Source of the DNA: a virus
Direction: 5' to 3' (one strand)
Length of the DNA stretch: 64,000 bases
Virus record (IMG/VR): IMGVR_UViG_3300043434_000871
Coordinates: 3,347 to 67,346 of that record
Position 1 is the first letter of the stretch, and the number at the start of each line of letters is the position of its first letter. The notes under the pieces were generated by a model. That model was not told the DNA's origin. It saw nothing but the letters and a program-made list of their open reading frames with translations, and ran no database searches. The position numbers and the translations under genes were made by a program. Below are positions 663 to 48,966 of the stretch, piece after piece.

Positions 663-697
663 CGGGGAAGGTTGCACGGTTATTATTAAGGGGCAAC

Positions 698-943
698 TCA
701 TCGGATGGTGCGACCGACGGAAGGGTTGCGGGAGACGATGGACATCATGTGTTTGCGGACGACGGCGTTGAGTTCGTCGTAGACGGCGGGATCCAAGCGG
801 CTGAACTTGTGGTGCCGGGTCTGGTTGGCAAAGTCCATGAGGAATTGTTTGCACGCGGCTTTGTTGACGAAGAAGGAGACGCGGGTGCGGAGTCCTTTTG
901 CCAAGAGGACGCGGTCGTTGGTGGGTGTTTCGGGTAAGTTCAT
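698..943 (-). CDS. Small basic protein, candidate histone fold
   Basis: FFVNKAACKQFL...SRLDPAVYDELNAVVRKHMMSIVSRNPSVGRTIR resembles the helix1-L1-helix2-L2 pattern of bacterial histones. Confidence 0.5.
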   Translation of the reverse strand: MNLPETPTNDRVLLAKGLRTRVSFFVNKAACKQFLMDFANQTRHHKFSRLDPAVYDELNAVVRKHMMSIVSRNPSVGRTIR

Positions 944-947
944 ACAC

Positions 948-1289
948 TTAGAAGCTGTAAGGGTTGAAGGCCGGGCGTGGCAAGGTCGGAGGCGGGGCCA
1001 TCTTCCGCCCTGGGTGCGGCTGCACCCAGACCAAACTGTAGGCTTGAAACCCCGCGGGTTCCGCACTTGGCGGGGGAGGGGGCACGTTGCCACCCCCCTG
1101 CAACTGCGGCGGCACGCAGGCCAGCAAGAGGACCGCGGGGAGCCACGTCGCGAGGCGGTGCAGGAAGTTCCACGCCTTGTCGCGCAGAGACAGGCGAAGT
1201 TGCCGGGGTTTGGAGGCCGCACCCCACAGCGCGATGTAGGCAGCGGGATCGAGGCACGGATTGGATGGGTCGAATTCACGGTAGTTCAT
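948..1289 (-). CDS. Hypothetical membrane-associated, Pro-rich protein
   Basis: AAGGAAA RBS before ATG 1289; hydrophobic WLPAVLLLAC then Pro-rich tail; alternative start at 1394. Confidence 0.5.
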   Translation of the reverse strand: MNYREFDPSNPCLDPAAYIALWGAASKPRQLRLSLRDKAWNFLHRLATWLPAVLLLACVPPQLQGGGNVPPPPPSAEPAGFQAYSLVWVQPHPGRKMAPPPTLPRPAFNPYSF

Positions 1290-1421
1290 ACTTTTGGTTT
1301 CCTTTCTTGGGAGGACCACGCGGGGTTTGAACTTCGAGCCGTCATGCGAAATGACGACCCGAGTGCAAGGGGCCGCGGTGGTCGGTTTGTTCATGTTGGT
1401 TATTACGACAGTGTGGGGTTA

Positions 1422-1767
1422 TTATTCGTTCAAACTATTTGCCTCGTCGGCAAAGATTGTCTGCCACCGGATTGAGTCCCCGTGGTAGATGTGCCGCTCT
1501 TCGGCGTAGCGCAAGGCGTTGATGTGCTTGTCGTTGTTCGGCCAAGCGTTGCTCGCTCCCCGCTCGACGATCGCCGATCGCGTAATACCAACCTGGGCCT
1601 TCCGGCCACAGACTATCGGGATTGTCTTTCTCCTCGGGTGAGACCTCGAAGATCTCGTTGTTGCCAGTAGTGGCGATGTCGAGCAGTTCATCTTCAGTGC
1701 CGATGTAAAGATCGACGCCTCCAATGTGGTTGTTCTTTCCTAACAGGTGCAGTGTTTGTGTGTTCAT
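1422..1767 (-). pseudogene. Early gene frameshifted by a 7-bp tandem duplication
   Basis: CGATCGC x2 at 1568-1581; removing one copy joins the two ORFs into one 112-aa frame (WYYAIVERGASNAWP...). Confidence 0.6.
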
Positions 1768-2475: not shown

Positions 2476-2508
2476 GGTAGTGTGTTTCCTTTCTTGGTTA
2501 CGGGGTTA

Positions 2509-2820
2509 TTACAATAGGTTGAGTTGATAGCCGTCTTGCGGCACGGTCTTCACGGTTGCGCGATGCACCACATGCCGAGCGGTGTGTAGCTCGGACGCTT
2601 CGTGATCGCGGAAGAGTTCGAGTAGTGAGGCCAACGCTTCATGCAGCCGTGGAGCCGCGGCCAGCAGATCGGCCTCTTGATGCACCCGCAACCCCGCATC
2701 GCGGAGCCGCAGGTAACGGCGGTCGTTCTCCCCGAGCCGCACGAGATACTCGTCAGCATACGCCGTGGCGGCAAAGCCGACCAACGAGACAAGCTGCGGG
2801 GTCAATGGTTCATGGTTCAT
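2509..2820 (-). CDS. Hypothetical early protein
   Basis: ADLLAAAPRLHEAL motif common in phage early proteins; stop overlaps the TAATAACCCC motif. Confidence 0.6.
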   Translation of the reverse strand: MNHEPLTPQLVSLVGFAATAYADEYLVRLGENDRRYLRLRDAGLRVHQEADLLAAAPRLHEALASLLELFRDHEASELHTARHVVHRATVKTVPQDGYQLNLL

Positions 2821-3520: not shown

Positions 3521-3877
3521 TTAAGAGGCCAGCAATGCGGGGTTATTACGCACGGGTTCACTGAAATCGGGTTGGTCAGAGTCAAAAACATCCCAAGCCG
3601 CAATCCAAAGAAGCCGGTGCCAGTTCTGCTCGTCATCGGCGAGTTCTTCGTCGTCCCATGCGCCATACTCGGCCAACTCACGCCGGATGGAGTCGGGAGT
3701 CGGGCCGTTGGGGAAGTTGTCACGCTCGGCTTGGTCGCGCACGGCGTCCACCCAAGCAGCGACGGCTTCGTCGTTGCGTCCCGACTGGGCGATGTCGAGG
3801 ATCGCTTCGCCGGGGATGCGGAATTCAAGGCCGTTGCCAGAGGCCCAGTAGAGTTTATTAGGTTCGATGTTTTTCAT
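3521..3877 (-). CDS. Hypothetical early protein
   Basis: AAAGGAAA RBS; IRRELAEYGAWDDEEL...RLLWIAAWD. Confidence 0.65.
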   Translation of the reverse strand: MKNIEPNKLYWASGNGLEFRIPGEAILDIAQSGRNDEAVAAWVDAVRDQAERDNFPNGPTPDSIRRELAEYGAWDDEELADDEQNWHRLLWIAAWDVFDSDQPDFSEPVRNNPALLAS

Positions 3878-4260: not shown

Positions 4261-4289
4261 GTGTATTTCCTTTCTTGGTTACGGGGTTA

Positions 4290-4910
4290 TTACTCGGAGT
4301 CTTTGCTTGTCGGAATTCCGACAAGGGCTTCGGACTTCTTTGGTGTGTAGGGCGTGCCGCACGAGGGACACTCGTCGTCGTGCTGGCTGTCGCCTTCGGT
4401 TTGCCACTCAACCTCGCAGTCGAAGCAGTGGTAGACGTTGAGGTAGGAGACGGGGCTGTGTGCTTTTTGGGCTTTGGCGATGGCTTCGCAGGCGATTGTT
4501 TTCACGGCGTCGAGGGCATACCATGTCTTTTTCCCGGTCTCTCGTCGCTCAATGACCCCAGCCTCGCCGATAGCGGCTATCTGTTTAAGAGCAGCCAGCA
4601 ATTCGGGGGCGGCAGCTATAAGATGCGCGTTTGCTAACGCTTCGGGATGCCCTGACTCAATCCCAGAATCGTGAGTGCCAAGGTATTCTTTGATGGCTTC
4701 AAGATTCCAAGGGCCGGGTGTGTGGTGGCTTGTCGGAATTCCGACAATTTTGGCGATGGCTATCTTGAGTTCCTTGATGGTCAGCTTCACGCCTTCCACG
4801 TCCAACGTGACAAACGGATCGTTGGCTCTCTCGACTTCCAACGCACCCTGCAAATCAAGCAGGGCGCACTTGGCGGCGTTGAGAAGTTCTTGGTTGATTG
4901 TCTTTTTCAT
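4290..4910 (-). CDS. Hypothetical mosaic early protein with C-terminal zinc ribbon
   Basis: HTPGPW and ANAHLIAAAPELL motifs; CxxC...CxxC; VGIPT twice, each encoded by a 20-bp palindrome. Confidence 0.65.
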   Translation of the reverse strand: MKKTINQELLNAAKCALLDLQGALEVERANDPFVTLDVEGVKLTIKELKIAIAKIVGIPTSHHTPGPWNLEAIKEYLGTHDSGIESGHPEALANAHLIAAAPELLAALKQIAAIGEAGVIERRETGKKTWYALDAVKTIACEAIAKAQKAHSPVSYLNVYHCFDCEVEWQTEGDSQHDDECPSCGTPYTPKKSEALVGIPTSKDSE

Positions 4911-5200
4911 TGTTCGCTCTTCCTTTCGTTGTTGAGTTTCGGATGCTGTTGCACCCACTTGAGTTCCTTGTGCGCCCTGCTCATCTCAAGCAGGGTTCCT
5001 AACTTGCGCCACGCCTTGCGAGCATGGTCGTGGGCGATGCCATATTGGCAATCGTCCAAAGCGTGCGCTGCACGCTCCATCTCCGCATCAGCAGCATCAA
5101 AGTGCTCCACGATGCACGCTTCATGTTGCATGATGCGGTAGTCCAGCCACGGGATCATCTTGCCGCCCGTGTCGATCGGCTTGAGTAGGAATCGGCTCAT
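4907..5200 (-). CDS. Hypothetical early protein
   Basis: ATG next to palindrome 5205; stop overlaps the next start (ATGA). Confidence 0.6.
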   Translation of the reverse strand: MSRFLLKPIDTGGKMIPWLDYRIMQHEACIVEHFDAADAEMERAAHALDDCQYGIAHDHARKAWRKLGTLLEMSRAHKELKWVQQHPKLNNERKSEQ

Positions 5201-5220
5201 GGTGCTTGTCGAAATTCCGA

Positions 5221-6321: not shown

Positions 6322-6377
6322 GATTTATTTTTCCTTTCGTTTGGTTGTTGGTTTTCTTGTCGGAATTGCGACAAGGG

Positions 6378-7718
6378 TTATTGGTCGGTGGCTTGGGTGG
6401 CGGGTTGGGCGAGGGGAGCGAGTCCGCCACGGCGGTAGCCGGGCAAACGGGTGTCGCTGGCCTCGAACTGCTGCACGAACTCGGCGCACTTGGCCGCGCC
6501 GAAGCGGTCGATGCTGCCGCGCTGGTTGCCGATGGTGCGGGCCTTGGCTTTCAGCGTGTTGAGCAAGGCACGCAACGTGCCGGGCTGGTGCAAGGCGGCC
6601 CACCGATAGAACGATTCCCACGCTTCGACGGCGGTCTCGTTATTGATGGGCGTGGCGCAGTCTCGCTCGGCGTTGTCTTCGCTCCAGAAGGCGATGGCTT
6701 GCATGAGCGAGGCGCGGAAACGCCAGTCGCTCGGCTTGCGGCTCGTGCCCCATAGACGCATCTCGACGGTGCCGGTGCGGCCGAAGGTGTTTGCGCTGAT
6801 GGCCGCAAACTTGACGCTCTGCGCGTCGACCCATGACCCGGTCGCCCCGATCGGGCACCAACGCGAGTGTCGGCGGGTGAGCGGTGCAAGGTAACGAGTC
6901 CACGACAGATGATACCGCAGGGCGTAATAGACGGCGCGGCCGATGGCCTCGTCGCGCTTGCAGTTGAGGTGGATGTGCCCGCCATTGCGCTCGATGGAGC
7001 CGAGGCGATGAACCAAGTTGCACGCAACCTCGGGGATGTTGGCGAAGATGCGGAACCTGATCTCATGCTGGCCGCCGCCGTCGCGGCCGACATCCCAGTA
7101 AGCGGCTTTGTATTGGCGGACAAGGATGGTCGAGACACACTGATCGTCGACGCGCTTGAAGGAACGCAGGCTCGTGGCCTCAAGCTCGCCGCTGCACTCA
7201 TAGAGCGGCAGCTTGTCCCAGTAAGACGGCTCGACTTTCTTCGGCGTGTGATCGCGGAGTATGTCGCGCTCCCATTTTTTGAAGTAAGGCCCAAGATTTT
7301 TGTCGAGTTGCCGTGCGTTGGCCCTGGACAGCCAATCCAACCCGAACTCATCGACGACTCGGGTGATGAGCGTGTCGAGGGTGATGCCGTCCTCGCGGAA
7401 GAGCTTGCGGAAGAACTTGCGCTTGCGGACATAGCGCAAGGCAATCTCAGCCATGAGCCGCCGCGACCGCTGGCGAACCTCGCTCTGCGCGAGTTCATAC
7501 TTGCCGCGAACCCGCTGATACGCCTTGCGGATGACCACTTTTTCGTCCCCTTCCAACAGCCCCCAGTTCGGGGCCATGTCGGGAGAAAAAGGATGCTCGC
7601 GATCCCCCTGGATATTCCATTGACGGCGGAGATACCAATAGGCATACCGCCCGTGATCCGAAAGTGGCATCGGCTTCGACGCGACCTCGGTGAGTGTGAG
7701 TGTGGAGTTATTATCCAT
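6378..7718 (-). CDS. Putative amidoligase (COOH-NH2 ligase type)
   Basis: GELEA, DGG..HEI, GGHIHLN and TVEMRL motifs; adjacent to the amidotransferase. Confidence 0.7.
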   Translation of the reverse strand: MDNNSTLTLTEVASKPMPLSDHGRYAYWYLRRQWNIQGDREHPFSPDMAPNWGLLEGDEKVVIRKAYQRVRGKYELAQSEVRQRSRRLMAEIALRYVRKRKFFRKLFREDGITLDTLITRVVDEFGLDWLSRANARQLDKNLGPYFKKWERDILRDHTPKKVEPSYWDKLPLYECSGELEATSLRSFKRVDDQCVSTILVRQYKAAYWDVGRDGGGQHEIRFRIFANIPEVACNLVHRLGSIERNGGHIHLNCKRDEAIGRAVYYALRYHLSWTRYLAPLTRRHSRWCPIGATGSWVDAQSVKFAAISANTFGRTGTVEMRLWGTSRKPSDWRFRASLMQAIAFWSEDNAERDCATPINNETAVEAWESFYRWAALHQPGTLRALLNTLKAKARTIGNQRGSIDRFGAAKCAEFVQQFEASDTRLPGYRRGGLAPLAQPATQATDQ

Positions 7719-7849
7719 GTTTGTTTCTTTCTTCTTTGGTTGTTTTGTTTTGCTTGACGCAATTCCGACAATTTTGCCGGAGGCGATTGGACAAGCCTTC
7801 CGCCCCCTCGCAGGGAAGGGGCGGTGTGGCTTGCACAGTTACAGGGTTA

Positions 7850-8209
7850 TTACTTGTCTTCGAACTGCGCGGCGTAGGTCTTGGGATTGATCCACCCATC
7901 CACCGGGACTTCGAGCGGATGATTCCACGCGAGGCGCAAATCCCCGTTGCGGGTGGACGTGTTCACCTTGGTCACTCCACGATCGCGGAACACGGCGAAC
8001 CCTCGCCGCTGGCCAACGCCGTTGATGCGCTCGCGGGTGATCACCGTGTCCCACCCGGCCAGCGTGATCTCGATCTCGCCATTGTCCGCATGGCGCACGA
8101 TCGGGTTGCCATGCAACCAAATCGTCGTGCCATCGGTGCGCGTGTTGCCGCACTTGCGGGGTCGCCGATTGCAAAACGCATCAGCTATCTCTCTCGTTAC
8201 TTTTCTCAT
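7850..8209 (-). CDS. Hypothetical early protein
   Basis: WLHGNPI...LAGWDTVITRERING, a recurrent phage early-protein pattern. Confidence 0.7.
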   Translation of the reverse strand: MRKVTREIADAFCNRRPRKCGNTRTDGTTIWLHGNPIVRHADNGEIEITLAGWDTVITRERINGVGQRRGFAVFRDRGVTKVNTSTRNGDLRLAWNHPLEVPVDGWINPKTYAAQFEDK

Positions 8210-8267
8210 GCTGTCTCTCTTTCTAATTGTCGGAATTCCGACAAGGTTACAGGGTTAATACTTTCAA

Positions 8268-8390: not shown

Positions 8391-8404
8391 GGGTTACAGG
8401 GTTA

Positions 8405-8620
8405 TTACCCAAGTTTCGCCACCGAGGGAAGCAAATCCGCAAATGGTGTGAACATGTGCGGACGCTGCGCCGCCCGGTAATCCTGGCCGCCGATCAAATC
8501 GACAGCCGCCGCGCAACGCTCTTCCATTGACGGCCGCCGCGGATGCTTCTCCGCGTAACGCTCAAGCCGATAGTCTGTTTTTCTGGCACTCACCAGCATC
8601 ATGTGGATGGTCTTTTTCAT
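8405..8620 (-). CDS. Hypothetical early protein
   Basis: ATG downstream of palindrome 8639. Confidence 0.5.
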   Translation of the reverse strand: MKKTIHMMLVSARKTDYRLERYAEKHPRRPSMEERCAAAVDLIGGQDYRAAQRPHMFTPFADLLPSVAKLG

Positions 8621-8727
8621 TTTGTCTTTGTTTGGTTCCTTCACGGAATTCCGTGAAGCCTTGCCATAATGGGCAAGCCACACGCGCACAACCGCTGTCG
8701 GTTGTGGCGTGTCGTTTGCTCACTTGG

Positions 8728-10220: not shown

Positions 10221-10249
10221 TTGACAGGCTCGCAGATTCACTAAATAAT
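10221..10249 (+). promoter_or_regulatory. Sigma70-like promoter upstream of the tRNA
   Basis: TTGACA-N17-AATAAT. Confidence 0.65.
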
Positions 10250-10254
10250 AACCG

Positions 10255-10323
10255 CGCAGGAAAGGTTGGATCCTCGGCTAGTCTCATAAGCTGGCCTTCC
10301 GAGTTCGATTCTCGGTCCTGCTA
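10255..10323 (+). tRNA. tRNA with CAT anticodon (Met or Ile2), short D-arm, no encoded CCA
   Basis: Acceptor GCAGGA/TCCTGC; anticodon loop CTCATAA; T-arm CCGAG-TTCGATT-CTCGG. Confidence 0.75.
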
Positions 10324-14549: not shown

Positions 14550-14570
14550 ACAAAGGTGATGGGGTTATTA

Positions 14571-19979: not shown

Positions 19980-19996
19980 ATTATTTGTTTAGGTTA

Positions 19997-22420
19997 TTAC
20001 TTTTGTCTCTTGAGGTAGTGATAAGTCCCTTCGGACTTGGCCGCATTGGCATCCACCAAGGCGTCACGAAGTTGGTCTTTGGTTTTCGCCATCTCGCCTC
20101 GTTGGGCCGTGCGGGCGATGACTTTTTCCAGATCACCGATTTTTACTTCGGCGCAGGCGGCAAAGGCTTCCGGCGAGATCCGGCCCTTCACTACGTCCCA
20201 TGCGGCCTGGGCGTCGGTGATCTTGAACGGCAGCTTGCGCTCGGCCAGTTCCCATCCCGGAATCTCGATGCCCTCGTTAAGCCGCATCTCCAACGCACGG
20301 GCGTCTACCTTCTCGGCCCAAGATTTCATGATCGGCGCGGCTTTCTTGGCTAGCGCCATCATATTCGGATCGGTGATGTTGGCTGGGTCGTATTGCGCCG
20401 GTAGTGCCAATTCGTCGGCCTTGTATTGCGTGGCGATGGTGAGTGCCAAACTGGAGAGTTTCGGGCAACTGGCCTGCCGTCCGCACCAAGCGCAGTGTGC
20501 TCCGGTCAAATAAGTCGAGGGGTCATCCCGCCTCGCGGCTGCGATGATGGCGGTGGTTTGCGCGGAGAGACGTTCGTAGTCTTTTTCCCGAGACCACGTC
20601 TCTTGGTCAATGACCCCCCGAAAGGGTAATAAAACATGCACGGTTATTAATTCAATGTCCCGATGAGCATCCCACAATCCGACGGCATACGCCCAGAATT
20701 GAGGAGAGTCCGCGACGTATTCGCCCCATGCAAACTTGTAGTCGATCAACTCCGCCGACGCCCCATGCAGGATGATGTGGTCGATGTGTCCGAATTGGTC
20801 TTGGATTTGATACCGCTGCTCCCGAAGCTCCCGATGCGGACCGAGGCGTTTTCTTAATGCTGCCAGATACTTCAGACACATACCCGCCGCCTCGCGCAGC
20901 TTTGGATCGTCCGGCGGGATCACGTCGAGATTTTCTTTCTCCACGGCGAGGTGACCGAGAGTCCCCCGGTCGGCGGCGCTTTTGTCGCGGGTTTGATCGT
21001 TGCGGAATCCTGGGCATTTGGCTTTCTCCTTGAGTGATGAGGGGCTGTGCTCGCTGTGAGCTTTCTCCTCGGGTTGTGGGGTTATTACCTTGGTCACGGG
21101 TATTGAGACATCACCCCATTGACTTACGTTCAAACTTTTTTCTCCCGCGTTGAGAATTTTTACATTGTCCCGTTTTTCCGCCGTGAGTTTGAGGGCGGCT
21201 TGCTCGATCGTCCCCCCGGCGTAGAGCCTTATCGCCAACGCCCGAGACTTCGCACCCACGCGAGAGATTCGTCCAACAGCTTGCTCCTCGACAGTGCCAG
21301 AGAACTGGGGACAAAGCAGTGCAACTCGTGGAAAACGTCCGTCAAGATCGTGAAGGTCGATACTTTGTCCTCCCGCGGCGATTTGCACGATGACGATGCG
21401 GAGATCGTTGCTCTGGAAGCGGGCTTGGATGCCTCGGCGTTTTTCCGCCGGCACGCGCCCGTCGAGCACGCAGTCTTCCTCGAAGTGGATTCGCGCTGCG
21501 TCGATCGACTCATGGAAGTTGAGAAAGAGCACGACGGAGCCTCCCGCCTCGATGATTTCTTTGGCTCTCTCGACGAGGTAGGGGACTTTGACTTTTTCAA
21601 TAGCTTGGCGCTGGCGGAGGTTTTTGACGCCGCCCGGATCTTTAGGATCTGACATTTCTTCATAAAGTTCTTTGATCGCAGTGCGGTCCTTCGGGTTCAG
21701 CCACAGCGGTTCATCCTCGGTCATAAGCTCCGGCAACTGCTCCCGCAGCACCTCCTCGGTCACGCGGTATCCGCGGTTCGCGAATACCGAATGGTGCAGC
21801 CGATCCATCGCCGCCTTGTTCTGCGGCAGATGCGGGTTCCATTCGAGGCCACCCCATCGGGATTCCTCGGCCCCCATCTCGCGCACCCACTTCCAGAAAT
21901 ATCCACCCGAGAACAACCGCAGATTCACCCCGATCGCCTTCATGCGGAGAGGGGATTCCGCTGCCGTCGCCGAGAGCATCAGCACGTAGTGCTCCGCCGC
22001 TGCCTCCAGCATCTTGCCGTTCTGCGAATTGTAAGCGCCATACATATGCGCTTCGTCGAAGATCATCAGACACCGCTCGGGAAGATTCCACGCAAACTTT
22101 GCGGAGTTTGCCCGTTTATTCCCGCCGGGTAATCTCTTCAGCCAATCGGTGTTCCCTGCCCGCAGCTTCTCGGGATTCAGCACAAAGAGCGGCTCGACTC
22201 GAAAAGCCCGCAGCGTGCTTTCCCATTTCGAAACGACACTTTTCGGACATATAACGCACGTTTTTAGCGAAAATCGTGCAGCTACCGCGCTGGCGATCAC
22301 CGTCTTGCCGCCACCGCAACCCGTGCCATCAAGACTCGCGCCTACGGAATCGAGGATTTTCAGATGCCGCTCCACGGCGTCTTTTTGATATTGAAAAAGT
22401 TTGAACGCTTTGGTTATCAT
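19997..22420 (-). CDS. SF2 (SNF2-like) helicase fused to a Cas4-like/DUF2800 PD-(D/E)XK nuclease
   Basis: GGGKT, DEAH, SAT, QAVGRISR; then SPSSL...CPG, GTLGH, IDYK and CAWC...C. Confidence 0.85.
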   Translation of the reverse strand: MITKAFKLFQYQKDAVERHLKILDSVGASLDGTGCGGGKTVIASAVAARFSLKTCVICPKSVVSKWESTLRAFRVEPLFVLNPEKLRAGNTDWLKRLPGGNKRANSAKFAWNLPERCLMIFDEAHMYGAYNSQNGKMLEAAAEHYVLMLSATAAESPLRMKAIGVNLRLFSGGYFWKWVREMGAEESRWGGLEWNPHLPQNKAAMDRLHHSVFANRGYRVTEEVLREQLPELMTEDEPLWLNPKDRTAIKELYEEMSDPKDPGGVKNLRQRQAIEKVKVPYLVERAKEIIEAGGSVVLFLNFHESIDAARIHFEEDCVLDGRVPAEKRRGIQARFQSNDLRIVIVQIAAGGQSIDLHDLDGRFPRVALLCPQFSGTVEEQAVGRISRVGAKSRALAIRLYAGGTIEQAALKLTAEKRDNVKILNAGEKSLNVSQWGDVSIPVTKVITPQPEEKAHSEHSPSSLKEKAKCPGFRNDQTRDKSAADRGTLGHLAVEKENLDVIPPDDPKLREAAGMCLKYLAALRKRLGPHRELREQRYQIQDQFGHIDHIILHGASAELIDYKFAWGEYVADSPQFWAYAVGLWDAHRDIELITVHVLLPFRGVIDQETWSREKDYERLSAQTTAIIAAARRDDPSTYLTGAHCAWCGRQASCPKLSSLALTIATQYKADELALPAQYDPANITDPNMMALAKKAAPIMKSWAEKVDARALEMRLNEGIEIPGWELAERKLPFKITDAQAAWDVVKGRISPEAFAACAEVKIGDLEKVIARTAQRGEMAKTKDQLRDALVDANAAKSEGTYHYLKRQK

Positions 22421-23299: not shown

Positions 23300-23312
23300 G
23301 GTTATGGGGTTA

Positions 23313-23492
23313 TTATCCTAACCCAAAGTATTTACGCAACGCAGCACGGATCACGCTGCTCATCGAGCGTCCCGAACCTTCAGACTCTTTCTTCAAGCGG
23401 TCTTCCAGTTCGGGATCGCTGGCGAATGAGCGTATCAACTTCGGGTTGCGAAGATTAGTCAGTTTCTCCGTTAAGAGTTCCTCGGAATTCAT
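23313..23492 (-). CDS. Ribbon-helix-helix (CopG-like) regulator
   Basis: IRSFASDPELEDRLKKES...GRSMSSVIRAALRKY. Confidence 0.7.
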   Translation of the reverse strand: MNSEELLTEKLTNLRNPKLIRSFASDPELEDRLKKESEGSGRSMSSVIRAALRKYFGLG

Positions 23493-25285: not shown

Positions 25286-25540
25286 GTATTTTGTGACAGA
25301 ATTGTGCCAAAAGCGTTCAAAATTTATCATAACCGTGCATAAAAGTAATACACCTAAAAGCCATAAGTCCTTGATTTACAGAGAAATACCGAAACAAAAA
25401 AATCTGAAAATCACCCCACGTTCAAGGAATTCGAACGAATGTGTCATAATTTGTAAGTCTCTTTTGGAGAGGGTTTTGGGGGTTATCAGATTTGGAGTGT
25501 GCCGTGGTTTGGCGAGGGTTGTGGCACAAAGAGGAGGAAG

Positions 25541-27319
25541 ATGGGTGTTTTGATCCTTGGTCCGGGGCAGCAGGCTCCGGCCGGTTACTTCCCTCGCTAC
25601 GGCGCGTGGTGGGCTCCGCACACGGCGGATTGGGCGATCGAGTTGTATTGCTTCCGCGGGCTTCAGACGCAGGGGATGGAGGTGCTTTCCCGCGAGCAGC
25701 ACTTCAAGAACGCGGCGCAGATGTTTTTCCACAAGAAGTCGGAGAACTTCATTTGGCACCCTTGGGCGATGGATATGCTTTACGAGTGCTGCCATCACAA
25801 GTTCGTCGGCTTTGCGGGGTGCGGCTCCTCCGGTAAATCGGAGTTTATGGCGATCTGGGCGCTTTTGAATTGGTTGGCCGCGCCGTTTCACACGCTTTCG
25901 CTGGTGACGAGCACCTCGATCCGCGATGCGAAGAAGCGGGTGTGGGGCGCGGTGCAGCGGTATTGGCCGTGCATCAAGTCCGTGGCTCCGGGCAAGTTGG
26001 CGGACACGCCGACGCCGGCGATTTACGTGATTCGCAACGGCGAGCGGATGGAGCAGGCGGGGGTGTATCTGATTCCGGCGGAGGCGAAGAAGACGGCGGA
26101 GGTGACGGGCAAGATGCGCGGCATGAAGGCGCATCGGGTGATCGTGGCGGCGGATGAGTTGAGTGAGCTAGGCCACGCTTTTCTCGACACGGCGCTTTCG
26201 AACTTGTCGAACAACCCGGAGCTTCGCATCTGTGCAGCGGCAAATCCGGTGAGCTACTACGATCCGTTTGGCCGGTTTGCCGAGCCGAAGGACGGGTGGG
26301 GGAGCATCACGGTCAACGACGAGCGGTGGGAGACGAAGATCGGCGGGGTTTGTTTGCACCTCGATGCGCTCAAGAACCCGAACTATCTGGCCGGAGAGAA
26401 CAAGTGGCCGATCCAGAAATGGGAAAAAATCGACGAGGCCCGCGAGCGGTTGGGTGAGGACAATCCGATCTTCTGGCGTGACTATCGGGGATTCTGGCCT
26501 CCGCAGGCGGTCAGTAAGGCGATCTACTCCGAGGCCGAGATCGTCCGGTTCCAGGCCGATCAAAAGCCCGTTTGGAAGGGCCGAGTCGAGCGGGTAGCCG
26601 GACTCGACCCTTCCTTTGTGAGCGGCGGAGACAGATGTGTGCTTTATCTCGGGAGCTTTGGCCAGAATAAAGACGGAGCCGATCAGGTTTCGTTCGATGA
26701 GTTCCACTTCCTCGACGAGGAGGCGAGCAACCCCGAGCCGAGGACGTTCCAGATCGCACGGAAGATTCAAGACATCATCGTGAAGGCGGGCGTTCCGTGG
26801 CGAAATGTCGGTGTCGACGTGACGGGCGGCGGGGTGCCGTTCTGCGATGCGCTGGCGACGGTGTGTGGCTCGAATGAATTTCAGCGCGTCCACTTCGGCG
26901 GAGCCCCGTCGAGCCGATCGCTCTCGGCTTACGATTCCACGCCGGCCGACGAGAAATATGTCAACAAGGTCACCGAGCTTTGGTTCGGGGCCAAAGAGTT
27001 CTTGGCGAGCGGACAGCTTCGCGGGATCGGTCCGGATCTGGCGCGGGAGATGACCGGCCGGAACTACGACACAAGGAAGTCCGGTTCGATGAAGGTCGTG
27101 GTGGAATCGAAGACCGACATGAAGGCCAGGATCGGTCGGTCGCCGGACGTGGCCGATGCCGCCTTTGTCATGTTGGATGTCGTCCGCGAGCGGTTCGGGA
27201 TGCGGCCTCCGCAAGAAGGCGGCAGCAATCGACGTGGTGGATTGACCCGTTGGAAGCAGACCATGACGACCGGCAAGTTTGCTCCGCGGCGCGCGCCCAG
27301 TTTGTTGACGAACGCCTAG
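25541..27319 (+). CDS. terL: Terminase large subunit
   Basis: GAGGAGG RBS; GSSGKS, VAADE, GLDP and SPDVADA motifs. Confidence 0.85.
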   Translation: MGVLILGPGQQAPAGYFPRYGAWWAPHTADWAIELYCFRGLQTQGMEVLSREQHFKNAAQMFFHKKSENFIWHPWAMDMLYECCHHKFVGFAGCGSSGKSEFMAIWALLNWLAAPFHTLSLVTSTSIRDAKKRVWGAVQRYWPCIKSVAPGKLADTPTPAIYVIRNGERMEQAGVYLIPAEAKKTAEVTGKMRGMKAHRVIVAADELSELGHAFLDTALSNLSNNPELRICAAANPVSYYDPFGRFAEPKDGWGSITVNDERWETKIGGVCLHLDALKNPNYLAGENKWPIQKWEKIDEARERLGEDNPIFWRDYRGFWPPQAVSKAIYSEAEIVRFQADQKPVWKGRVERVAGLDPSFVSGGDRCVLYLGSFGQNKDGADQVSFDEFHFLDEEASNPEPRTFQIARKIQDIIVKAGVPWRNVGVDVTGGGVPFCDALATVCGSNEFQRVHFGGAPSSRSLSAYDSTPADEKYVNKVTELWFGAKEFLASGQLRGIGPDLAREMTGRNYDTRKSGSMKVVVESKTDMKARIGRSPDVADAAFVMLDVVRERFGMRPPQEGGSNRRGGLTRWKQTMTTGKFAPRRAPSLLTNA

Positions 27320-27338
27320 TGCGCTATAATAACCCCAC

Positions 27339-27530
27339 ATGCCTAGCTACTTTTCAGATGGCAACGAACCCAAGCTGACCGATTCTGCGGATCGTTTGCT
27401 CCACAAGTTTGCCTCGTTGGCCCGCCAATGGGCCGGCGCTTCATCGTCCTATGAGCCGACGCCGAACGATTCGCGTCAGCGTGTCCTAAACAAAGCCGTT
27501 CAATCCTTACTCGTCAAAGCCAATGCCTAA
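27339..27530 (+). CDS. Small protein made of two copies of a putative anchor motif
   Basis: NEPKLTDSADRLLHK and YEPTPNDSRQRVLNK; TATAAT 8 nt before the ATG. Confidence 0.6.
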   Translation: MPSYFSDGNEPKLTDSADRLLHKFASLARQWAGASSSYEPTPNDSRQRVLNKAVQSLLVKANA

Positions 27531-28886: not shown

Positions 28887-29399
28887 ATGGACTTAACAGC
28901 GATCAATTCAGCTATCGATGCGGCTTACGCTGACGCTCTCGTCAACGGTGGTCAAATGACTTTACCTCAAACAATCGCACAAAACGTCACACTTAGAATA
29001 GACTCCTATGTTGCTCCCGGCGGTTCAGGGTTTCGAGTAGTTGCGTGTGTCGTAGTCCCTGAAGCCAACTACACGGCAGTTCGCGTGAAGAACCACGGCC
29101 CTGATACCGACAGCGAACGCGAGTGGCCGAGCGAAGGCATCGAAGCCGCCGCCCAAGCCCACGTTGCGCGGTGCATTGAAGCGGGAGCCGACTTTGTGAA
29201 CCGAAGCGGCTTTGACGCCGACCGCAAAGTGATTCTCTTGAATAAACTGCTCAAAGCCAAACAGGACGGCACGGTTGCCGATTTTCCGAAACTGACCGCG
29301 CTCTATGTGTGGATGGAAACGGTTCAGGCAATGGCCGTGAGCGGGCAGACCTTTTTCCCCAAGGCACCGCACACTTTCGAAGAAGTCATCAAGGAATAA
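28887..29399 (+). CDS. Hypothetical protein (possible assembly chaperone)
   Basis: Directly follows the LamG gene. Confidence 0.55.
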   Translation: MDLTAINSAIDAAYADALVNGGQMTLPQTIAQNVTLRIDSYVAPGGSGFRVVACVVVPEANYTAVRVKNHGPDTDSEREWPSEGIEAAAQAHVARCIEAGADFVNRSGFDADRKVILLNKLLKAKQDGTVADFPKLTALYVWMETVQAMAVSGQTFFPKAPHTFEEVIKE

Positions 29400-29429
29400 T
29401 AACCGCACACGCGCTATAGTAAGCGCATC

Positions 29430-30579: not shown

Positions 30580-31004
30580 ACGACGCCTGTAAAACCGGAG
30601 ACATCTCCGAGTCGATCTTCGCCACGCAAGCTCTCCGTCGGGGCTGGTGGGTTTACACGTCCAATGGTCATGCGCGGCCGGCGGATGCGATCGTGGTCCG
30701 ACCGCCGATGCGTCCGGTTTCTATCCAGATCAAGACCGCCTCGATCTATGCCGATCGTGACAATACTTATGGTGTGATGGTCTGCCGGGGGAGAGGTCCG
30801 GTCAAAGTGTCCTACCTTAAAGGTGACTTCGATATCTTGGCCGCGTGGTTACCGGACGTGGAGAAGTTTGTCTTCTGGCGATTTGACGAGATCGCCGAGC
30901 GGAAGAAAATTAACTATTCGCCGCGGCTGCATCGTCAGCCGGACAACTGGGATTTGTTGGAGACCCCATTTGAAGATATAATAACCCCACAACCATGCTG
31001 CTAG
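30576..31004 (+). CDS. PD-(D/E)XK endonuclease
   Basis: GDISE...ADAIV...IQIKT...DFDILAAW. Confidence 0.7.
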   Translation: MNDACKTGDISESIFATQALRRGWWVYTSNGHARPADAIVVRPPMRPVSIQIKTASIYADRDNTYGVMVCRGRGPVKVSYLKGDFDILAAWLPDVEKFVFWRFDEIAERKKINYSPRLHRQPDNWDLLETPFEDIITPQPCC

Positions 31005-34292: not shown

Positions 34293-34529
34293 ATGCCAGA
34301 TTATTATCCCGAAAATAACATCCCCTTACGCGAGGATTACACCGAGAGGTCGTTGCAGAAGATCAATGCCATCCTGCACGCGGCGAGTCCGGTATGGGAC
34401 GACATAAATCTGACCTACGACGGCAACGGCAACCTGACCCAAGCCGTCTTCAAGGCGGGGGGTTCGGTGATCCAGACGACCAACCTCACCTACACGAATA
34501 ATAACCTCACAAGAGTGCAACGTAGCTGA
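34293..34529 (+). CDS. Small virion protein with the shared N-terminal motif
   Basis: MPDYYPENNIP...ERSLQK; LTYDGNGNL. Confidence 0.65.
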   Translation: MPDYYPENNIPLREDYTERSLQKINAILHAASPVWDDINLTYDGNGNLTQAVFKAGGSVIQTTNLTYTNNNLTRVQRS

Positions 34530-36399: not shown

Positions 36400-36699
36400 A
36401 TGAATGTTTCCGACCCGCTCAACTATGGAATCGACCCGACGGGAGGCATGGCTTCCGGTCGGCGCAGTGCTGGCTTGGCCAAGATGAGTCTCGAAGGTGA
36501 GAGGCTGGCGCGGTTGGAGACCAAGGTTGATCTGATCTTGGAGCACCAAGAGATGTTCCGGAAGTTGTTTGAGAAGCACGACGACCGCCTGAAGCACCTG
36601 GAGAATACCAAGGCGAGCATCTACGGCATCGCGGCGGCGATCGGGGCGATGTCGGCCTTTGTGATGGACTCGGCCAAAACTTTTTTTCTGCATAGATAA
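36400..36699 (+). CDS. Coiled-coil protein with C-terminal TM (XhlA/holin-like)
   Basis: RLARLETKVD...IYGIAAAIGAM; start may be further downstream. Confidence 0.55.
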   Translation: MNVSDPLNYGIDPTGGMASGRRSAGLAKMSLEGERLARLETKVDLILEHQEMFRKLFEKHDDRLKHLENTKASIYGIAAAIGAMSAFVMDSAKTFFLHR

Positions 36700-36722
36700 T
36701 AACCCCATAACCAAAACTTAAC

Positions 36723-37078: not shown

Positions 37079-37656
37079 ACCAGACGCAGATCAAGATTAT
37101 TCAGGAAACGGTCGGCACGGAGCCCGATGGGTTCTGGGGACCGAAGTCTATTGCCGCGACTCAGCGGTATCTGCGGTCGCTGATGCCGAAGCCGAATCCT
37201 TGGCCGAAGCAGGATCAGATAAGTCTCACGATGTTCTACGGTTCGGCGGGCAATGTGCCTCTGGCCAAGGTCGGTGTGCCGTATAAGATGTATCTCTACA
37301 ACGGGCCGGAGACGGTGCGGTCGCTCACGATTCACGAGAAGCTGGCGGCAAGTCTGGAGCGTATCCTGCAAGAACTCGGCAAGCGGTATAAGACTGAGGA
37401 GGACCGCACGGCGGCGGGGATCAACAGGTTCTTCGGGACGTATGTGGTCCGCAATATGAGGGGCGGCAGCTTGCCGAGTCTGCACGCTCGGGCGGCGGCG
37501 ATTGATTTTGACTACAATCGAAACGGCAACCACACCCACTGGCCGACGAGGTCGAACATGCCTTTGGCGGTGATGGAAATTTTTGCAAGAGAAGGCTGGC
37601 TTTCGGCGGGGGCGTTCTGGTCCAGGGACGCGGCTCATTTTCAAGCTACCACGTAA
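37075..37656 (+). CDS. Endolysin, peptidase M15 family
   Basis: DGFWGPKS peptidoglycan-binding motif; SLHARAAAID and DAAHFQ. Confidence 0.85.
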   Translation: MNQTQIKIIQETVGTEPDGFWGPKSIAATQRYLRSLMPKPNPWPKQDQISLTMFYGSAGNVPLAKVGVPYKMYLYNGPETVRSLTIHEKLAASLERILQELGKRYKTEEDRTAAGINRFFGTYVVRNMRGGSLPSLHARAAAIDFDYNRNGNHTHWPTRSNMPLAVMEIFAREGWLSAGAFWSRDAAHFQATT

Positions 37657-37665
37657 TAACTCCAC

Positions 37666-37953
37666 ATGAAACATACGCCTAACAGCTACCGCAGGTCGGA
37701 GCTCCTCCAAGCCTCACTGGCCGAAACGCTTAAACAGAACCACGTCCAGATCGCACTCCAAGTGCTCCGCGAACTCGGGGAGCCGGCCGAATTGCCCGTG
37801 CCGGGCGAGGTCGATTTTTTGATTTTCAACGCGATGCAGAACGCCCGGCGCGAGGGCTTCTTCCACGCGCTGCGTTCCCTCGAAGCCTTGGCCACGCCGA
37901 TCAAGGTGGCCCCCTCGACCAAAGATCTCATGCCGAATCTGGTCGAAGAATAA
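37666..37953 (+). CDS. Hypothetical head-associated protein
   Basis: Precedes the scaffold gene. Confidence 0.6.
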   Translation: MKHTPNSYRRSELLQASLAETLKQNHVQIALQVLRELGEPAELPVPGEVDFLIFNAMQNARREGFFHALRSLEALATPIKVAPSTKDLMPNLVEE

Positions 37954-39624: not shown

Positions 39625-39879
39625 TCAATTAACTAGCGCCAAATCCCCGCTGTTTTTGGCGCTGGTCAATTCTACCTATTTATACCGGGGTATAGCGAGA
39701 AACGGATAGAAAAGGCTACAGATCACCATAAGTAGTGCCTCGTTGTGACAACTCCTAGGACTTCGAGCGGCGAAGTCCTGTTAAACGATACTACACCCGA
39801 TCGGGACACTACACTGCACGGGTGTAGTGTCGGACGCTACACTGCTGCCCCGATCGGGGAAAAATCATAACCCCACAAT

Positions 39880-39907
39880 TTGACAACCGCATAACTGCGC
39901 GTAATTT
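39880..39907 (+). promoter_or_regulatory. Putative capsid-gene promoter
   Basis: TTGACA-N16-TAATTT. Confidence 0.5.
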
Positions 39908-40097
39908 AGCCTTACGTTTTACGGGTCGCGGCAAGAATCCGGTAGAAATCAAAATCAGTTAGGCATCGCGTGTAAAGCCTGTTCCGCGGCGGGGTCAAAA
40001 AGAAGCTCAGTCATTCGCTGTGCTCGGACCCGTCTATGCGGCCTCCGATACAAGCACAGGTAATAACTGTGTAACCAATAAGGAGAATACAAGCACT

Positions 40098-44512: not shown

Positions 44513-44691
44513 TGGCTGCCCTGCAAGAAATCCCTAAGCTCGACACGGCGATCGAACCAGCGATGAACTCATGGAGCACGCCTCCGGCGGGGATTTTGCT
44601 CTTGATTAAAGCCAGCGACGAAAGCCCGGACATCGGCACGGAGTATTACCTCCTCATCGACAACAACGGCAACCGTTTGCTCATCCAGTAA
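44512..44691 (+). CDS. Small protein (59 aa)
   Basis: TAATG coupling; YLLIDNNGNRLLIQ. Confidence 0.5.
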   Translation: MAALQEIPKLDTAIEPAMNSWSTPPAGILLLIKASDESPDIGTEYYLLIDNNGNRLLIQ

Positions 44692-44711
44692 TAACCCTGT
44701 AAAATAATAAA

Positions 44712-46139: not shown

Positions 46140-46185
46140 CCCCATTGCAAGAGGAGAACGACGCTAACCAAACTTTCTAAATAAT

Positions 46186-46602
46186 ATGGCACTCATCCCA
46201 GGAACACTCCCAACTGGAACCAAGTATCCTAACGACCCGCAGTCGTTGCTCGATACCTTTGCTTCCTATCTCACGGCACCGGAAGCCAAGAAGAATCGGC
46301 CGACGGTGTCGGTCTACTCTTCCGTTGCGGGAGCCACGATCACGGCACGACCTGATGGGTTGGACGAAACCGTGTTCCTCGATCACGGCAGCACGGCGGC
46401 GACCGCGACTTTCGTTTTCCCGAGCAACGCGAACAGTGTCACGGGGCAGATCCTTCGGTTGTTTGCCCGCAGCGCGGTGACCGCGTTGACGGTTTCTTCT
46501 TCGGGGCTGACTTTACGCGGGACCGCGCTGACTGCTCTTACGGCAAACCAACATGTTGCATGGCAGAAGGTGGCGGCGAATACTTGGATTAGACTGCAAT
46601 AA
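46186..46602 (+). CDS. Putative tail protein
   Basis: Beta-rich 138 aa ending NTWIRLQ. Confidence 0.55.
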   Translation: MALIPGTLPTGTKYPNDPQSLLDTFASYLTAPEAKKNRPTVSVYSSVAGATITARPDGLDETVFLDHGSTAATATFVFPSNANSVTGQILRLFARSAVTALTVSSSGLTLRGTALTALTANQHVAWQKVAANTWIRLQ

Positions 46603-48947
46603 TGGCGACTTACCTCGAAGCGCGTAACTTGTTAGCGCCCTACGTCGACAATGGCGTGGCGGTGAGTGATACGACGCGCATCGACCAGAGGATTGACGAA
46701 GCCCAGCGGCGGCTGATCGACCACTACAATTTCCTCTCACGCCGTGAGGAGAGCGCCCGCCCTTCTTTAGTCTGGCAGCGAGGCGGCACGACGGGTGTGC
46801 CGACGACAGGCAGTCTTATCCTGCCGAACCTCGACGCGACCAAGAACATGATCTTGGCGCTGTGGCGTGAGGAGAATAACCAGCTTGAACTGGCCACGGG
46901 TCTTGAGACCAAGGCGTATAGCTACATCGAGCGCAATATCACCAACGAGGTGGAGCGCGAGCGCCGGACGGCTTACGAGGCGTTGACGGTCAACGGGCAG
47001 AATACTTTCGGCGGGATGGTCGGTCGGGTCGGCTTGGAGACGCTTGTCCAATACCGGATGCCTGTGTCGCGGATCCGGAGCATCGTCAATCGCGCTTACC
47101 AACAGGCGATCGATCATCACAACTTTGTCTCTCGTCAGGAGAATCTGGAGCGTAATACGATCACCTATAATGCGCTGACTTCCGACGTGGATACCTTCGA
47201 CGCGTTGCTTCCCGATGAAGTCGTCCGCCTCCTCACGCTGGCCAATGTGGCGACCGACAATGGGGCTGACGGAGGCGGGCTCAAGGCCCAAGCGTTCGAG
47301 CTTATCCAGCGCAATGTCACTTCGGTCGTCGAGCGTGCCCGCCGGATTGCGGCCGGAACCGAGGGCCGTCTGCACAACGAACTTCCCGGAGGGTTGCAAA
47401 TTCCCACGGCGCGGCTGACCCAGTTTCTTTCCCAAGCGGCGACCGAAGCCGGAGCGCACTACGACTTCTTGGCCCGGCGTGAGGACTACTCCTCGGGAGT
47501 GAAGCCCAATCCCTTCACTTACGAAGTGCTCAAGCCTTTGGTTGAGGCTTACATTGCTACCACAACCGGAGCGGTTGATGTGGCCGCTGCGAAAAAGGGT
47601 GAATCCTTCCAGATCATCGAACGCGATTTGATGCAGAACGTCGAAGCGGCCCGCCGTAACGCGGCGGGGGAAGAGGGTCGTCTGCATAATGAACTTCCGG
47701 AAGGTGTGCGGATTTCCACGACGCGCCTGACGCAGTATTTGAGCCAAGCCGCCACGGAGGCTGGCACTCACTGGGACTTCTTGGCCCGACGTGAGGATTA
47801 TTCCAGTGGAACCAAACCCAATCCTTTTACCTATGAAGTGCGGAAAAAATACGTGGAGTCCTATGTCGCGACCTCAAGTGGTGCGGTCGAAGTCGCGTCG
47901 GCCCTCAAAGCCGAAGCGCAAGCGTTGATCGAACGGGATCTGATGACCCAAGTCGAGGCGGCTCGGCGTGCGGCGGCGGGCGATGAAGGTCGTCTCCACA
48001 ACGAGTTGCCCGGCGGATTGCAGACTTCGACTTCCCGCCTGACCACGCATCTGGCTCAAGCGACCTCGGAAATCGGGGCGCATCAAGCGTTTCTGCAACG
48101 CCGTGAGGACTACAACGGGGCGGTCCCTGCGGTGACCTACGAGCAGCGCAAGCTCTTGGTTGAATCTTACATCGCGACTCTGGCGGGTCAGGTGGAAGTC
48201 GCCGCGAACCTCAAGCAGCAAGCCTTGGCCTTGATTGAGCGGGATGTGATGGCCGGAATCGAGGCAACCCGCCGGGCGACCCGTGAGGCGCTTCTCGCTT
48301 CGGCCAACGACACTTTTGGGTATCACTGGGGCCGGATAGGGCTGGAGCTTCCGGAGGCTTACAAGCTCTCGGACTCGGCGGTCAAACGCATGGTCAATGC
48401 GGCCGAGGAGCAGTTGATGCTGGCGGGCAAGTGGGTTGGGACGGTGGCTGAGTATACCCTTTCCGTGAACGCCACGGGCGAGTTCTTCCTACCGGCCGAG
48501 GTGGAGACGATTCTTTACATGTCCTTCGACGGCGACCCGAAGCCCGTCCACGATCGCCTCAACGAATGGCTCCGCGGGGGCACAGGCTACCGTGAGACTG
48601 ATGACGCTTGGCGGCAGGGGGCGGTCGATCGCGGCGAGTCGATCGATCCGGCGGACAATGTCCTGAAGCGGAAGTATTGGATTACCCTGCCTGGCACGGG
48701 TAGCCAACCTGTAGTCCGGATTCTGGCCAAGCGCCGTTTTGTGCCGCACAGTGTCAACTCGGAGAAGATGTATCTCCGCAACTACCAAGCGATCTTCGAG
48801 GCGACCAAGGGCATCCTCCTCGGGGGCGACCAGATCACCCCGCATATCGACAAGGCCAAGGAGATGCTGGCTTCCCAGATCGCGCAGCAGAGCTTCACCG
48901 GAAACCGCGGAGCCGCGCACACTCGTCGCGTTCTTCAGTTTCGGTGA
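46602..48947 (+). CDS. Adaptor/tail tubular A-like protein with amplified ~104-aa repeats
   Basis: EGRLHNELP repeats with a 312-nt period; C-terminal VNAAEEQL...LPAEVETI. Confidence 0.55.
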   Translation: MATYLEARNLLAPYVDNGVAVSDTTRIDQRIDEAQRRLIDHYNFLSRREESARPSLVWQRGGTTGVPTTGSLILPNLDATKNMILALWREENNQLELATGLETKAYSYIERNITNEVERERRTAYEALTVNGQNTFGGMVGRVGLETLVQYRMPVSRIRSIVNRAYQQAIDHHNFVSRQENLERNTITYNALTSDVDTFDALLPDEVVRLLTLANVATDNGADGGGLKAQAFELIQRNVTSVVERARRIAAGTEGRLHNELPGGLQIPTARLTQFLSQAATEAGAHYDFLARREDYSSGVKPNPFTYEVLKPLVEAYIATTTGAVDVAAAKKGESFQIIERDLMQNVEAARRNAAGEEGRLHNELPEGVRISTTRLTQYLSQAATEAGTHWDFLARREDYSSGTKPNPFTYEVRKKYVESYVATSSGAVEVASALKAEAQALIERDLMTQVEAARRAAAGDEGRLHNELPGGLQTSTSRLTTHLAQATSEIGAHQAFLQRREDYNGAVPAVTYEQRKLLVESYIATLAGQVEVAANLKQQALALIERDVMAGIEATRRATREALLASANDTFGYHWGRIGLELPEAYKLSDSAVKRMVNAAEEQLMLAGKWVGTVAEYTLSVNATGEFFLPAEVETILYMSFDGDPKPVHDRLNEWLRGGTGYRETDDAWRQGAVDRGESIDPADNVLKRKYWITLPGTGSQPVVRILAKRRFVPHSVNSEKMYLRNYQAIFEATKGILLGGDQITPHIDKAKEMLASQIAQQSFTGNRGAAHTRRVLQFR

Positions 48948-48966
48948 TATAATAACTGTGCAACCA

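Follow-up and report, generated by a model that had tools for sequence, protein, structure and literature searches.

T4 late promoters consist of TATAAATA, an AT-rich word of ~8 bp at the −10 position that has no −35 element and is read by the phage sigma factor gp55, and Cluster K mycobacteriophages carry the SAS, an asymmetric 13-mer upstream of many start codons that includes the ribosome-binding site and keeps a near-fixed distance to the start. In phiEco32, middle and late promoters have the consensus AATGTA at about −11, read by the distant sigma homologue gp36, which also contacts the −35 region (PMC12276001); phage L5 has more than 20 asymmetric 13-mers, the stoperators, located at promoters and in short intergenic spaces and oriented with transcription (PMC9283540); and Deinococcus–Thermus has −10-only promoters that adjoin open reading frames (ORFs) and yield leaderless mRNA, the −35 element being dispensable but enhancing expression (PMC12340547). 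Here we analyse a 13-base word, TAATAAC followed by five loose bases and then A, in the viral record IMGVR_UViG_3300043434_000871 of IMG/VR. The window, that is, the whole stretch analysed, comprises 64,000 nucleotides (bases 3347–67346 of the 67,346-bp record, or 95% of it). The motif is real, strongly non-random and kept across a phage clade.

The record (completeness rating 97%, ~57% GC) has its genes in two arms. Those of the minus-strand arm run from 25330 leftwards to the window's left end and include a tyrosine-recombinase-like gene, small genes, a helicase-exonuclease, a split family-A DNA polymerase, a primase and a dCMP deaminase, and the plus-strand arm (25541–63574) encodes the terminase, tail and fibre-like proteins, an endolysin, a putative capsid protein and a 3405-aa polyvalent protein; a small plus-strand island lies at ~9850–10870 within the minus arm. 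An earlier note, made from the letters of this stretch, had listed 21 positions of a strand-aligned motif at gene junctions, all of which hold the motif within 1–2 nt. Further same-strand TAATAAC copies beyond that list were found at 2212, 7713, 20649 and 24087 (minus) and at 34499, 58984 and 61744 (plus). The enrichment over shuffled sequence that the note had asked about is borne out: the window has 23 copies of the extended pattern TAATAACNNYRYA where 0.02 would be expected, and none of 100 shuffles reached 23; TAATAACCS and the bare TAATAAC, an AT-rich 7-mer within a 57% GC genome, gave 23 and 33 matches against 0.31 and 1.68 expected, respectively. All 23 extended copies are co-oriented with the local genes, as had been claimed, 11 being on the minus strand within 1–25330, 11 on the plus strand within 25541–64000 and one on the plus strand in the island (10246). 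Four additional sites combine one core mismatch with the full extension, and two of these are TCATAAC in long plus-strand non-coding stretches. Off-strand TAATAAC copies at 3313, 10825, 11994, 12092 and 28705 are probably not members of the motif, and were not counted as such since the extension is missing from them and 11994 lies within the conserved dCMP-deaminase coding sequence.

Alignment of the 27 same-strand TAATAAC copies of the window gave a purine (R) at −1, TAATAAC invariant at positions 1–7, C at position 8 in 22 copies, loose positions 9 and 10, R at 11, a pyrimidine (Y) at 12 and A at 13 in 23 copies, with no conservation between −45 and −2. The gap from the core to the Y12-A13 step is fixed at 6 nt, and G precedes the core at eight of the 23 sites in the window and at the majority of those in relatives. 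The C or G that the note had placed at position 9 does not hold at 1398 (TAATAACCA) or at 19992 (TAATAACCT); site 1398 is also missing the extension, and relatives keep no second copy there. Overlap with the upstream stop codon stands for nine of the 23 copies, in which the called upstream gene ends with the motif's first TAA, and fails for the remaining 14. Five copies are intragenic (7713, 20649, 21087, 58984 and 61744). The proposed closeness to the next start codon agrees with 16 of the 23 copies, which lie 13–43 nt upstream of it. Among the titles listed in a literature search for the motif, no description of it was found.

Conservation was examined using the 774-aa protein encoded at 31747–34068 as query, which retrieved 60 viral loci, among them more than 50 related IMG/VR contigs. 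Loci with at least 66% identity carry TAATAAC, mostly on the gene strand and with some exceptions, such as L037, which has none, and a sister clade also keeps the motif. At 28–41% identity TAATAAC is not enriched over a reversed-word control, and loci at ~39% identity bear unrelated palindromic hairpin repeats instead, analogous to the palindrome CTTGTCGGAATTCCGACAAG of the phage analysed here but different from it. Five near-complete relatives (G001–G005, the phage of the window being G000) have 18–23 TAATAAC copies each. These genomes are strongly mosaic, about half of G000 aligning at the DNA level to any one relative; the core and the R-Y-A step are constant across all six and positions 8–10 vary, position 8 being C in G000, T in G001 and G002, and A or G in G003 and G005. 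The motif persists at orthologous junctions even as the ATG shifts among motif positions 13, 14, 17, 18, 21 and 34 (17/13/14 for a 96-aa gene, 17/18/21 for a 251-aa gene and 34/13/14 for a 63-aa gene), and hence the motif is tied to the downstream gene and not to a fixed translation geometry. The intragenic copy at 21087 is kept in G003–G005 and has one core mismatch in G001 and G002, within flanks of 70–77% identity.

Spacing was analysed for 92 unique full sites in the six genomes, 77 of them with an ATG-initiated ORF within 59 nt; orthologous sites were entered separately and the counts are therefore not independent. The ATG begins at position 13 at eight of the 77 sites, at 14–18 at 19, at 19–28 at 22 and at 29–60 at 28. 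Shine–Dalgarno (SD)-like words are absent from all 49 sites with the ATG at positions 13–28 and present at 12 of the 28 with the ATG at 29–60, typically as GAAAGGAA or AGGAGA. Leaders after the motif are A-rich and G-poor and, if transcription started at position 13, would be only 0–5 nt long at 27 of the 77 sites. Upstream of the motif we found no UP-like AT-richness beyond −20.

A match of at least 5/6 to TTGACA at a spacer of 16–17 nt is present at only four of 88 non-redundant sites, so that the motif appears to form a −35-less class. At the junction following the terminase gene, a TTG is found 15–19 nt upstream of TAATAA (TCATAA in G003) in G000–G005, within the hexamers TTGACG and TTGACC (16 nt), TTGCTC and TTGCTG (18–19 nt) and TTGTAA (15 nt), and the sister-clade loci L035, L036 and L066 have TTGACT or TTGACA 17 nt upstream at the same junction. 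The spacers there have diverged and the Leu codon is always TTG, though TTG makes up 23% of the phage's Leu codons. In the window this is site 27327, with TTGACG 14 nt from TATAAT and 16 nt from TAATAA. The claim that copy 10246 sits at the −10 of a TTGACA promoter is borne out at the sequence level, TTGACA-17-AATAAT (10221–10249) being the window's best sigma-70-like match (11/12); sigma-70-like sites overall are not enriched in the window over shuffles. The reading TATAAT-AAC is indeed present at 27325, 30977 and 48948, and the TATAAT register occurs at few sites only. Some copies stand apart from upstream genes: that at 40061 is separated by ~810 nt from the gene before it and by 38 nt, with an SD among them, from the ATG of the putative capsid gene, and in relatives the motif is found 2–11 nt past strong intrinsic terminators (4218 and 58963 in G004, 51352 in G005), one of which comes after the recombinase operon. 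A scan of metagenomes for the 5′ end of the putative capsid gene gave 30 stretches, two of them true relatives (long contigs), and no transcript-like ends.

We lean, with guarded confidence, towards the motif being the core of a promoter used throughout the phage clade. Bacterial RNA polymerase usually starts seven bases after the −10 hexamer. TAATAA would be a −10-like hexamer (−12 to −7) followed by the invariant C at −6, positions 8–12 would form a loosely constrained discriminator, and transcription would start at the conserved A13 or at the purine at position 11; by sequence, the hexamer, the 6-nt gap and the pyrimidine-A step match the usual −10-to-start spacing. What the genomes themselves show is the motif with its orientation, spacing rules and conservation, and from these we infer start activity, a start position and a reader. 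That reader would be a sigma-70-family holoenzyme of the host, and the few sites that have a TTG-type −35 might need no more than the host's primary sigma; at the ~90% of sites without one, initiation would occur from the −10-like word alone or via a phage factor. Since start codons lie 0–30 nt past position 13, the messages of about one third of the downstream genes would have no leader or almost none, and those of the others would have a longer leader with an SD. The phage-wide −10/start element with short leaders put forward by the earlier note is thus supported in part, and appears to fit the sequence evidence best, given the AT-rich core, the fixed Y-A gap, the −35-like TTG and the split in SD use.

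Several observations weigh against this promoter reading. In the register TAATAA (T at −12, A at −11), the −7 equivalent is A in all copies in place of the sigma-70 T, and A at −7 is unfavourable for known primary sigmas, which need T; in the register NRTAAT, G takes the place of the sigma-70 A at −11 at eight of the 23 window sites and at most sites of the relatives. Essentially two loci supply the evidence for a −35, and one of them lies within terminase coding sequence. Replication and structural genes share one word with no temporal classes, which is unusual for phage promoters. Among individual copies, 7713 lies past the start codon within a gene, 7852 is immediately followed by a stem-loop (which has no T-run and need not be a terminator), and a start at position 13 of copy 10246 would fall 3 nt within a tRNA called by ARAGORN, itself without Rfam support. 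Pairs of a terminator followed by the motif are not enriched overall (5/120 sites versus 108/3600 random positions). Lastly, scans against PHROGs, Pfam and NCBIfam (63 to 67 ORFs per library, including left-end genes beyond the window) recognised no sigma factor, RNA polymerase, RNA-polymerase-binding protein or classical repressor.

The only DNA-binding-type matches in those scans were to a ribbon-helix-helix (RHH) protein (E 6e-5), a second, weak RHH and a weak Nu1-type helix-turn-helix (HTH; E 0.008). Conserved small proteins of the phage include the RHH (23313–23507), one of 96 aa (23009–23299), one of 97 aa (23725–24018), those of the island (9846–10688) and some at the left end. Two proteins considered as reader candidates were rejected, a conserved one of 250 aa, which is Pam3_Gp34/DUF5895-like, and one of 148 aa, which has only unnamed relatives. 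A tentative proposal, of fairly low probability, is that the motif is a promoter that needs no −35 and whose reader, encoded by the phage, escapes all current family models; it could be sigma-like, a sigma appropriator or a polymerase in hidden form. Candidates for such a factor would include the conserved small early proteins and the 2000 residues that lack annotation in the 3405-aa polyvalent protein, which is injected.

Like T4 late promoters, the motif is a single AT-rich −10 word without a −35, present in many copies and oriented with the genes. Unlike them, it precedes primase, helicase and structural genes alike, whereas the T4 word serves late genes only; the window has a single TATAAATA, at 39677 on the minus strand and outside gene junctions, and the family scans found no gp55-like protein. 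The likeness to the Cluster K SAS, also a repeated asymmetric 13-mer just upstream of many start codons, ends at the spacing and content, since here the ATG begins anywhere from motif position 13 to 60 and no SD lies within the motif. Compared with the Deinococcus–Thermus leaderless promoters and the leaderless middle and late transcripts of Thermus phages, the motif shares a −10-like element a few bases before the ORF and no SD, but the former element is host-wide and TATAAT-like and the word found here is a clade-specific phage word ending in A-C (PMC12340547); moreover, the ATG stands exactly at the predicted start at only eight of 77 sites here. phiEco32 likewise uses a phage-specific word at a −10-like position, AATGTA (PMC12276001), from which the word here differs, and no sigma homologue was detected here. 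A kinship with N4-like phages, an idea prompted by the 3405-aa ORF as a virion RNA polymerase, was rejected on finding LPD37 and ART-PolyVal domains instead and a gene content that is not N4-like, so that the N4 and LUZ7 promoter literature does not apply; unlike the promoters of N4-like phages (Schitoviridae), the motif forms no hairpin. Judged by these likenesses, the motif resembles most the −10-only phage promoters (T4 late and phiEco32 gp36) and the Deinococcus–Thermus leaderless promoters, and is a member of none, given that TATAAATA is not at junctions, the scans revealed no phage sigma factor, A-C forms the end of the word and its use is not restricted to late genes.

The genomic pattern is also that described for the stoperators of L5. 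In site number, length, asymmetry, presence in both arms and orientation, the 23 co-oriented 13-nt sites are like the stoperators and operators of Cluster A phages (L5 gp71, TipsytheTRex repressor; PMC9283540). Under such a reading the motif would be the asymmetric site of a phage immunity repressor, blocking initiation at promoters and elongation at junctions and so silencing a prophage. It would account for early and late genes sharing one word; two of the sites overlap sigma-70-like promoters, and the phage encodes a tyrosine-recombinase-like protein (PHROG_1, E 7e-16), with small RHH or HTH-like proteins beside it and no full motif in the recombinase operon itself. Unlike Cluster A stoperators, however, the motif has an AT-rich −10-like core and a start-site-like Y-A step, the conserved parts thus resembling a −10 and a start site, and its middle positions (8–10) are free even within one genome. 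A roadblock would be redundant directly past strong intrinsic terminators, as found in relatives, and the motif lies no more than 45 nt from the next start codon, also where this places it in coding sequence. Neither a repressor family (PHROGs, Pfam and NCBIfam scans) nor a prophage relative of the 774-aa protein (185,579 species genomes) was found, so that lysogeny is unsupported, though a repressor unrelated to known families may be encoded. In the literature listed, stoperators are known only from actinobacteriophages. We regard the stoperator interpretation, the main rival of the promoter reading, as doubtful.

Acting instead at the RNA level, UAAUAAC...A could serve as a tandem stop with a re-initiation or standby site, as a site for a translational regulator, or as a cleavage site giving short-leader messages. 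Besides closing nine called genes in the window, the first TAA closes an open frame of at least 40 codons at 72 of 132 TAATAAC sites in the six genomes; a start codon follows 13–28 nt on, with no SD, at 49 of the 77 sites, which would suit stop-restart coupling, and the A-rich, G-poor leaders are in line with this. The re-initiation option of the earlier note is nevertheless weakened by the 14 of 23 copies that do not close a called upstream gene, by non-coding copies distant from upstream genes (40061, 10246 and the variant at 39865) and by the post-terminator copies in relatives, and it sits poorly with an ATG spacing of 0 to >30 nt, with the separate SD of long leaders and with the −35-like TTG kept at the post-terminase junction. 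We consider an RNA-level signal unlikely. Some other direction-tied role of the DNA was rated as very improbable: polymerase that still contains sigma is known to pause at −10-like words within transcription units, and the copies could be sigma-dependent pause or factor-loading sites, or they could be recombination junctions for swaps of gene modules. Several blocks differing between relatives do end at the motif (27342, 29409–29429, 37651 and 48956–48966), but without enrichment, nine of 42 junction-type boundary clusters lying at a motif versus 22 of 83 gene junctions bearing one. An explanation outside all those considered has a small probability, marginally above that of such direction-tied roles and well under that of an RNA-level signal.

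In the minus arm, reading from the window's left end, TAATAACCGTGCA at 673..685 precedes a 125-aa gene whose ATG is at motif position 24, with no SD, and TAATAACCCCACA at 1412..1424, with orthologous sites in G001–G004, has the ATG of the 148-aa gene at position 31. The copy at 2499..2511 (TAATAACCCCGTA) provides the stop of gene 2509–2805 and is followed by the SD GAAAGGAAA and an ATG at position 37, and TAATAACCCCGTA recurs at 4280..4292, where TAA is the stop of gene 4290–4910 and an SD and an ATG at position 33 follow; the 28-bp motif-plus-ribosome-binding-site unit said to be identical at two sites was verified for this pair (G plus 27 nt, at 2511 and 4292). Between them, TAATAACCCCGCA at 3536..3548 lies within the 3′ end of the upstream gene, with the ATG at position 43. 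At 7701..7713, TAATAACTCCACA is within codons 2–6 of a 446-aa gene and is kept in G001. TAATAACCCTGTA occurs both at 7840..7852, where TAA is the upstream gene's stop and the conserved stem-loop without a T-run follows, and at 8395..8407, where TAA is the stop of gene 8405–8689 and the ATG is at position 18. A variant, TAATAACCCCATC, directly follows the DNA-polymerase stop at 14558..14570, has the primase ATG at position 22 and is kept in relatives; another, TAATAACCTAAAC, at 19987..19999, has as its TAA the stop of an 807-aa gene and is followed by the ATG of the 250-aa gene at position 21. Within that 807-aa gene are TAATAACCGTGCA at 20637..20649, in the exonuclease part, and TAATAACCCCACA at 21075..21087, at the helicase/exonuclease domain junction. 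At 23303..23315, the TAA of TAATAACCCCATA is the stop of the RHH gene, and the ATG of the 96-aa gene is at position 17 (13 or 14 in relatives).

The plus-strand copy of the island, TAATAACCGCGCA at 10246..10258, overlaps the −10 of the sigma-70-like promoter and is followed by tRNA-like sequence at 10255–10323. This was called by ARAGORN as a tRNA-Met (CAT) with the T-loop GTTCGATTC, directly past that strong promoter, and it gave no Rfam tRNA match even at E 1 and was not used as evidence.

The plus arm opens with the one-mismatch variant TCATAACCGTGCA at 25327..25339, 214 nt before the terminase ATG, and the post-terminase junction (27305..27339) combines TTGACG, a 16-nt spacer and TAATAACCCCACA, with the ATG from position 13. 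At 29397..29409, the TAA of TAATAACCGCACA is the stop of gene 28887–29399 and the ATG is at position 34. Two copies are within the ends of upstream genes: TAATAACCCCACA at 30979..30991, in the 3′ end of gene 30576–31004 with the ATG of the 251-aa gene at position 17, and TAATAACCTCACA at 34499..34511, with the ATG of a 486-aa gene at position 31. TAATAACCCCATA at 36697..36709, its TAA a called stop and its ATG at position 27, heads a cluster of small genes and the endolysin gene, whose own stop is the TAA of TAATAACTCCACA at 37654..37666, with an ATG from position 13. The non-coding one-mismatch variant TCATAACCCCACA at 39865..39877 abuts TTGACA and has a perfect core in G004 and G005. It is followed by TAATAACTGTGTA at 40061..40073, in a ~850-nt non-coding stretch, with the SD AAGGAGA and the ATG of a 391-aa gene at position 38. 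At 44689..44701 the TAA of TAATAACCCTGTA is a called stop and the ATG of a tail-fibre-like gene is at position 24, and at 48950..48962 TAATAACTGTGCA stands 2 nt past the TGA of a 781-aa gene, with an ATG at position 18. The last two copies lie within the polyvalent-protein gene, read as N-N-N-R-T at 58984..58996 and as D-N-N-P-T at 61744..61756, the latter not being kept in G003–G005.

The stretch before the putative capsid gene (39250–40060, ~810 nt) is non-coding, GC-rich and hairpin-rich, and has no Rfam match. None of the five relatives keeps its left part (39238–39876), which is replaced there; the stretch may be an attP or cos region, or it may encode an unrecognised RNA. The palindrome CTTGTCGGAATTCCGACAAG, near-perfect over 20 bp, occurs six times in the early arm (4309, 4732, 5208, 6359, 7756 and 8229, spanning 4309–8242 of the window), for the most part after the end of a gene and ahead of the following SD or ATG, and in varying order relative to the TAATAAC motif; it may act as an RNA hairpin or as the operator of a dimeric regulator. 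In the sister clade, another palindrome, CCCTAGGG, is present 14 times in each of the 10–12-kb loci L036 and L066 (~0.2 expected). Tandem GAACCAT repeats (aaccatgaaccatgaaccatg) directly precede some start codons (2806–2835 and 8872–8900, minus strand; also in G003 and G005), AACC-ATG being a recurrent start context within the clade. The window's strongest intrinsic terminator (23695–23717, minus strand; 8 G-C pairs plus T7) ends the two-gene recombinase operon, which has no full motif, and is followed by a degenerate copy in G000 and by a perfect core in G004 and G005.

As to the genes themselves, DNA comparison with INPHARED and protein searches with the terminase, the 774-aa protein and the DNA polymerase revealed no close cultured phage: the terminase matched only Microbacterium phages, at 23% identity, the 774-aa protein had no match, and the DNA polymerase reached at most 28% identity, to phages of many hosts. 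The recombinase-like gene (24074–25330) has the RHS...HY motifs. The family-A DNA polymerase (14571–17672) is split into an exonuclease part (17253–17672) and a polymerase part (14571–15950) ~1.3 kb apart, with small ORFs in between (15951–17068) in an insert that is replaced in all five relatives. The 807-aa ORF (19997–22420) fuses a helicase (residues 4–430) to a DUF2800 exonuclease (440–771), with a motif copy exactly at the domain junction, and its tblastn coverage of 70–72% in G002 and G003 suggests two separate genes there. The virion-type 3405-aa polyvalent protein (53357–63574) has an HExxH motif, LPD37 (residues 2075–2229) and ART-PolyVal (2305–2408) domains, ~2000 N-terminal residues without annotation and no sequence match in PDB, and relatives share only 28–36% of its length.

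If the motif is a promoter, it offers a ready-made transcription map for a widespread, uncultured phage clade and adds a case of a GC-rich phage whose replication and structural genes alike would rely on leaderless messages and a −10-only word, which prompts one to ask how their timing is regulated; if, in addition, a phage-encoded factor reads it, one word would drive every gene class of a freshwater phage clade, with many leaderless messages. A stoperator role would instead make it the first case of genome-wide silencing of this kind beyond the actinobacteriophages. Under either a promoter or a stoperator reading, the 13-mer would provide a compact handle for genome annotation and for fishing out the protein that reads it.

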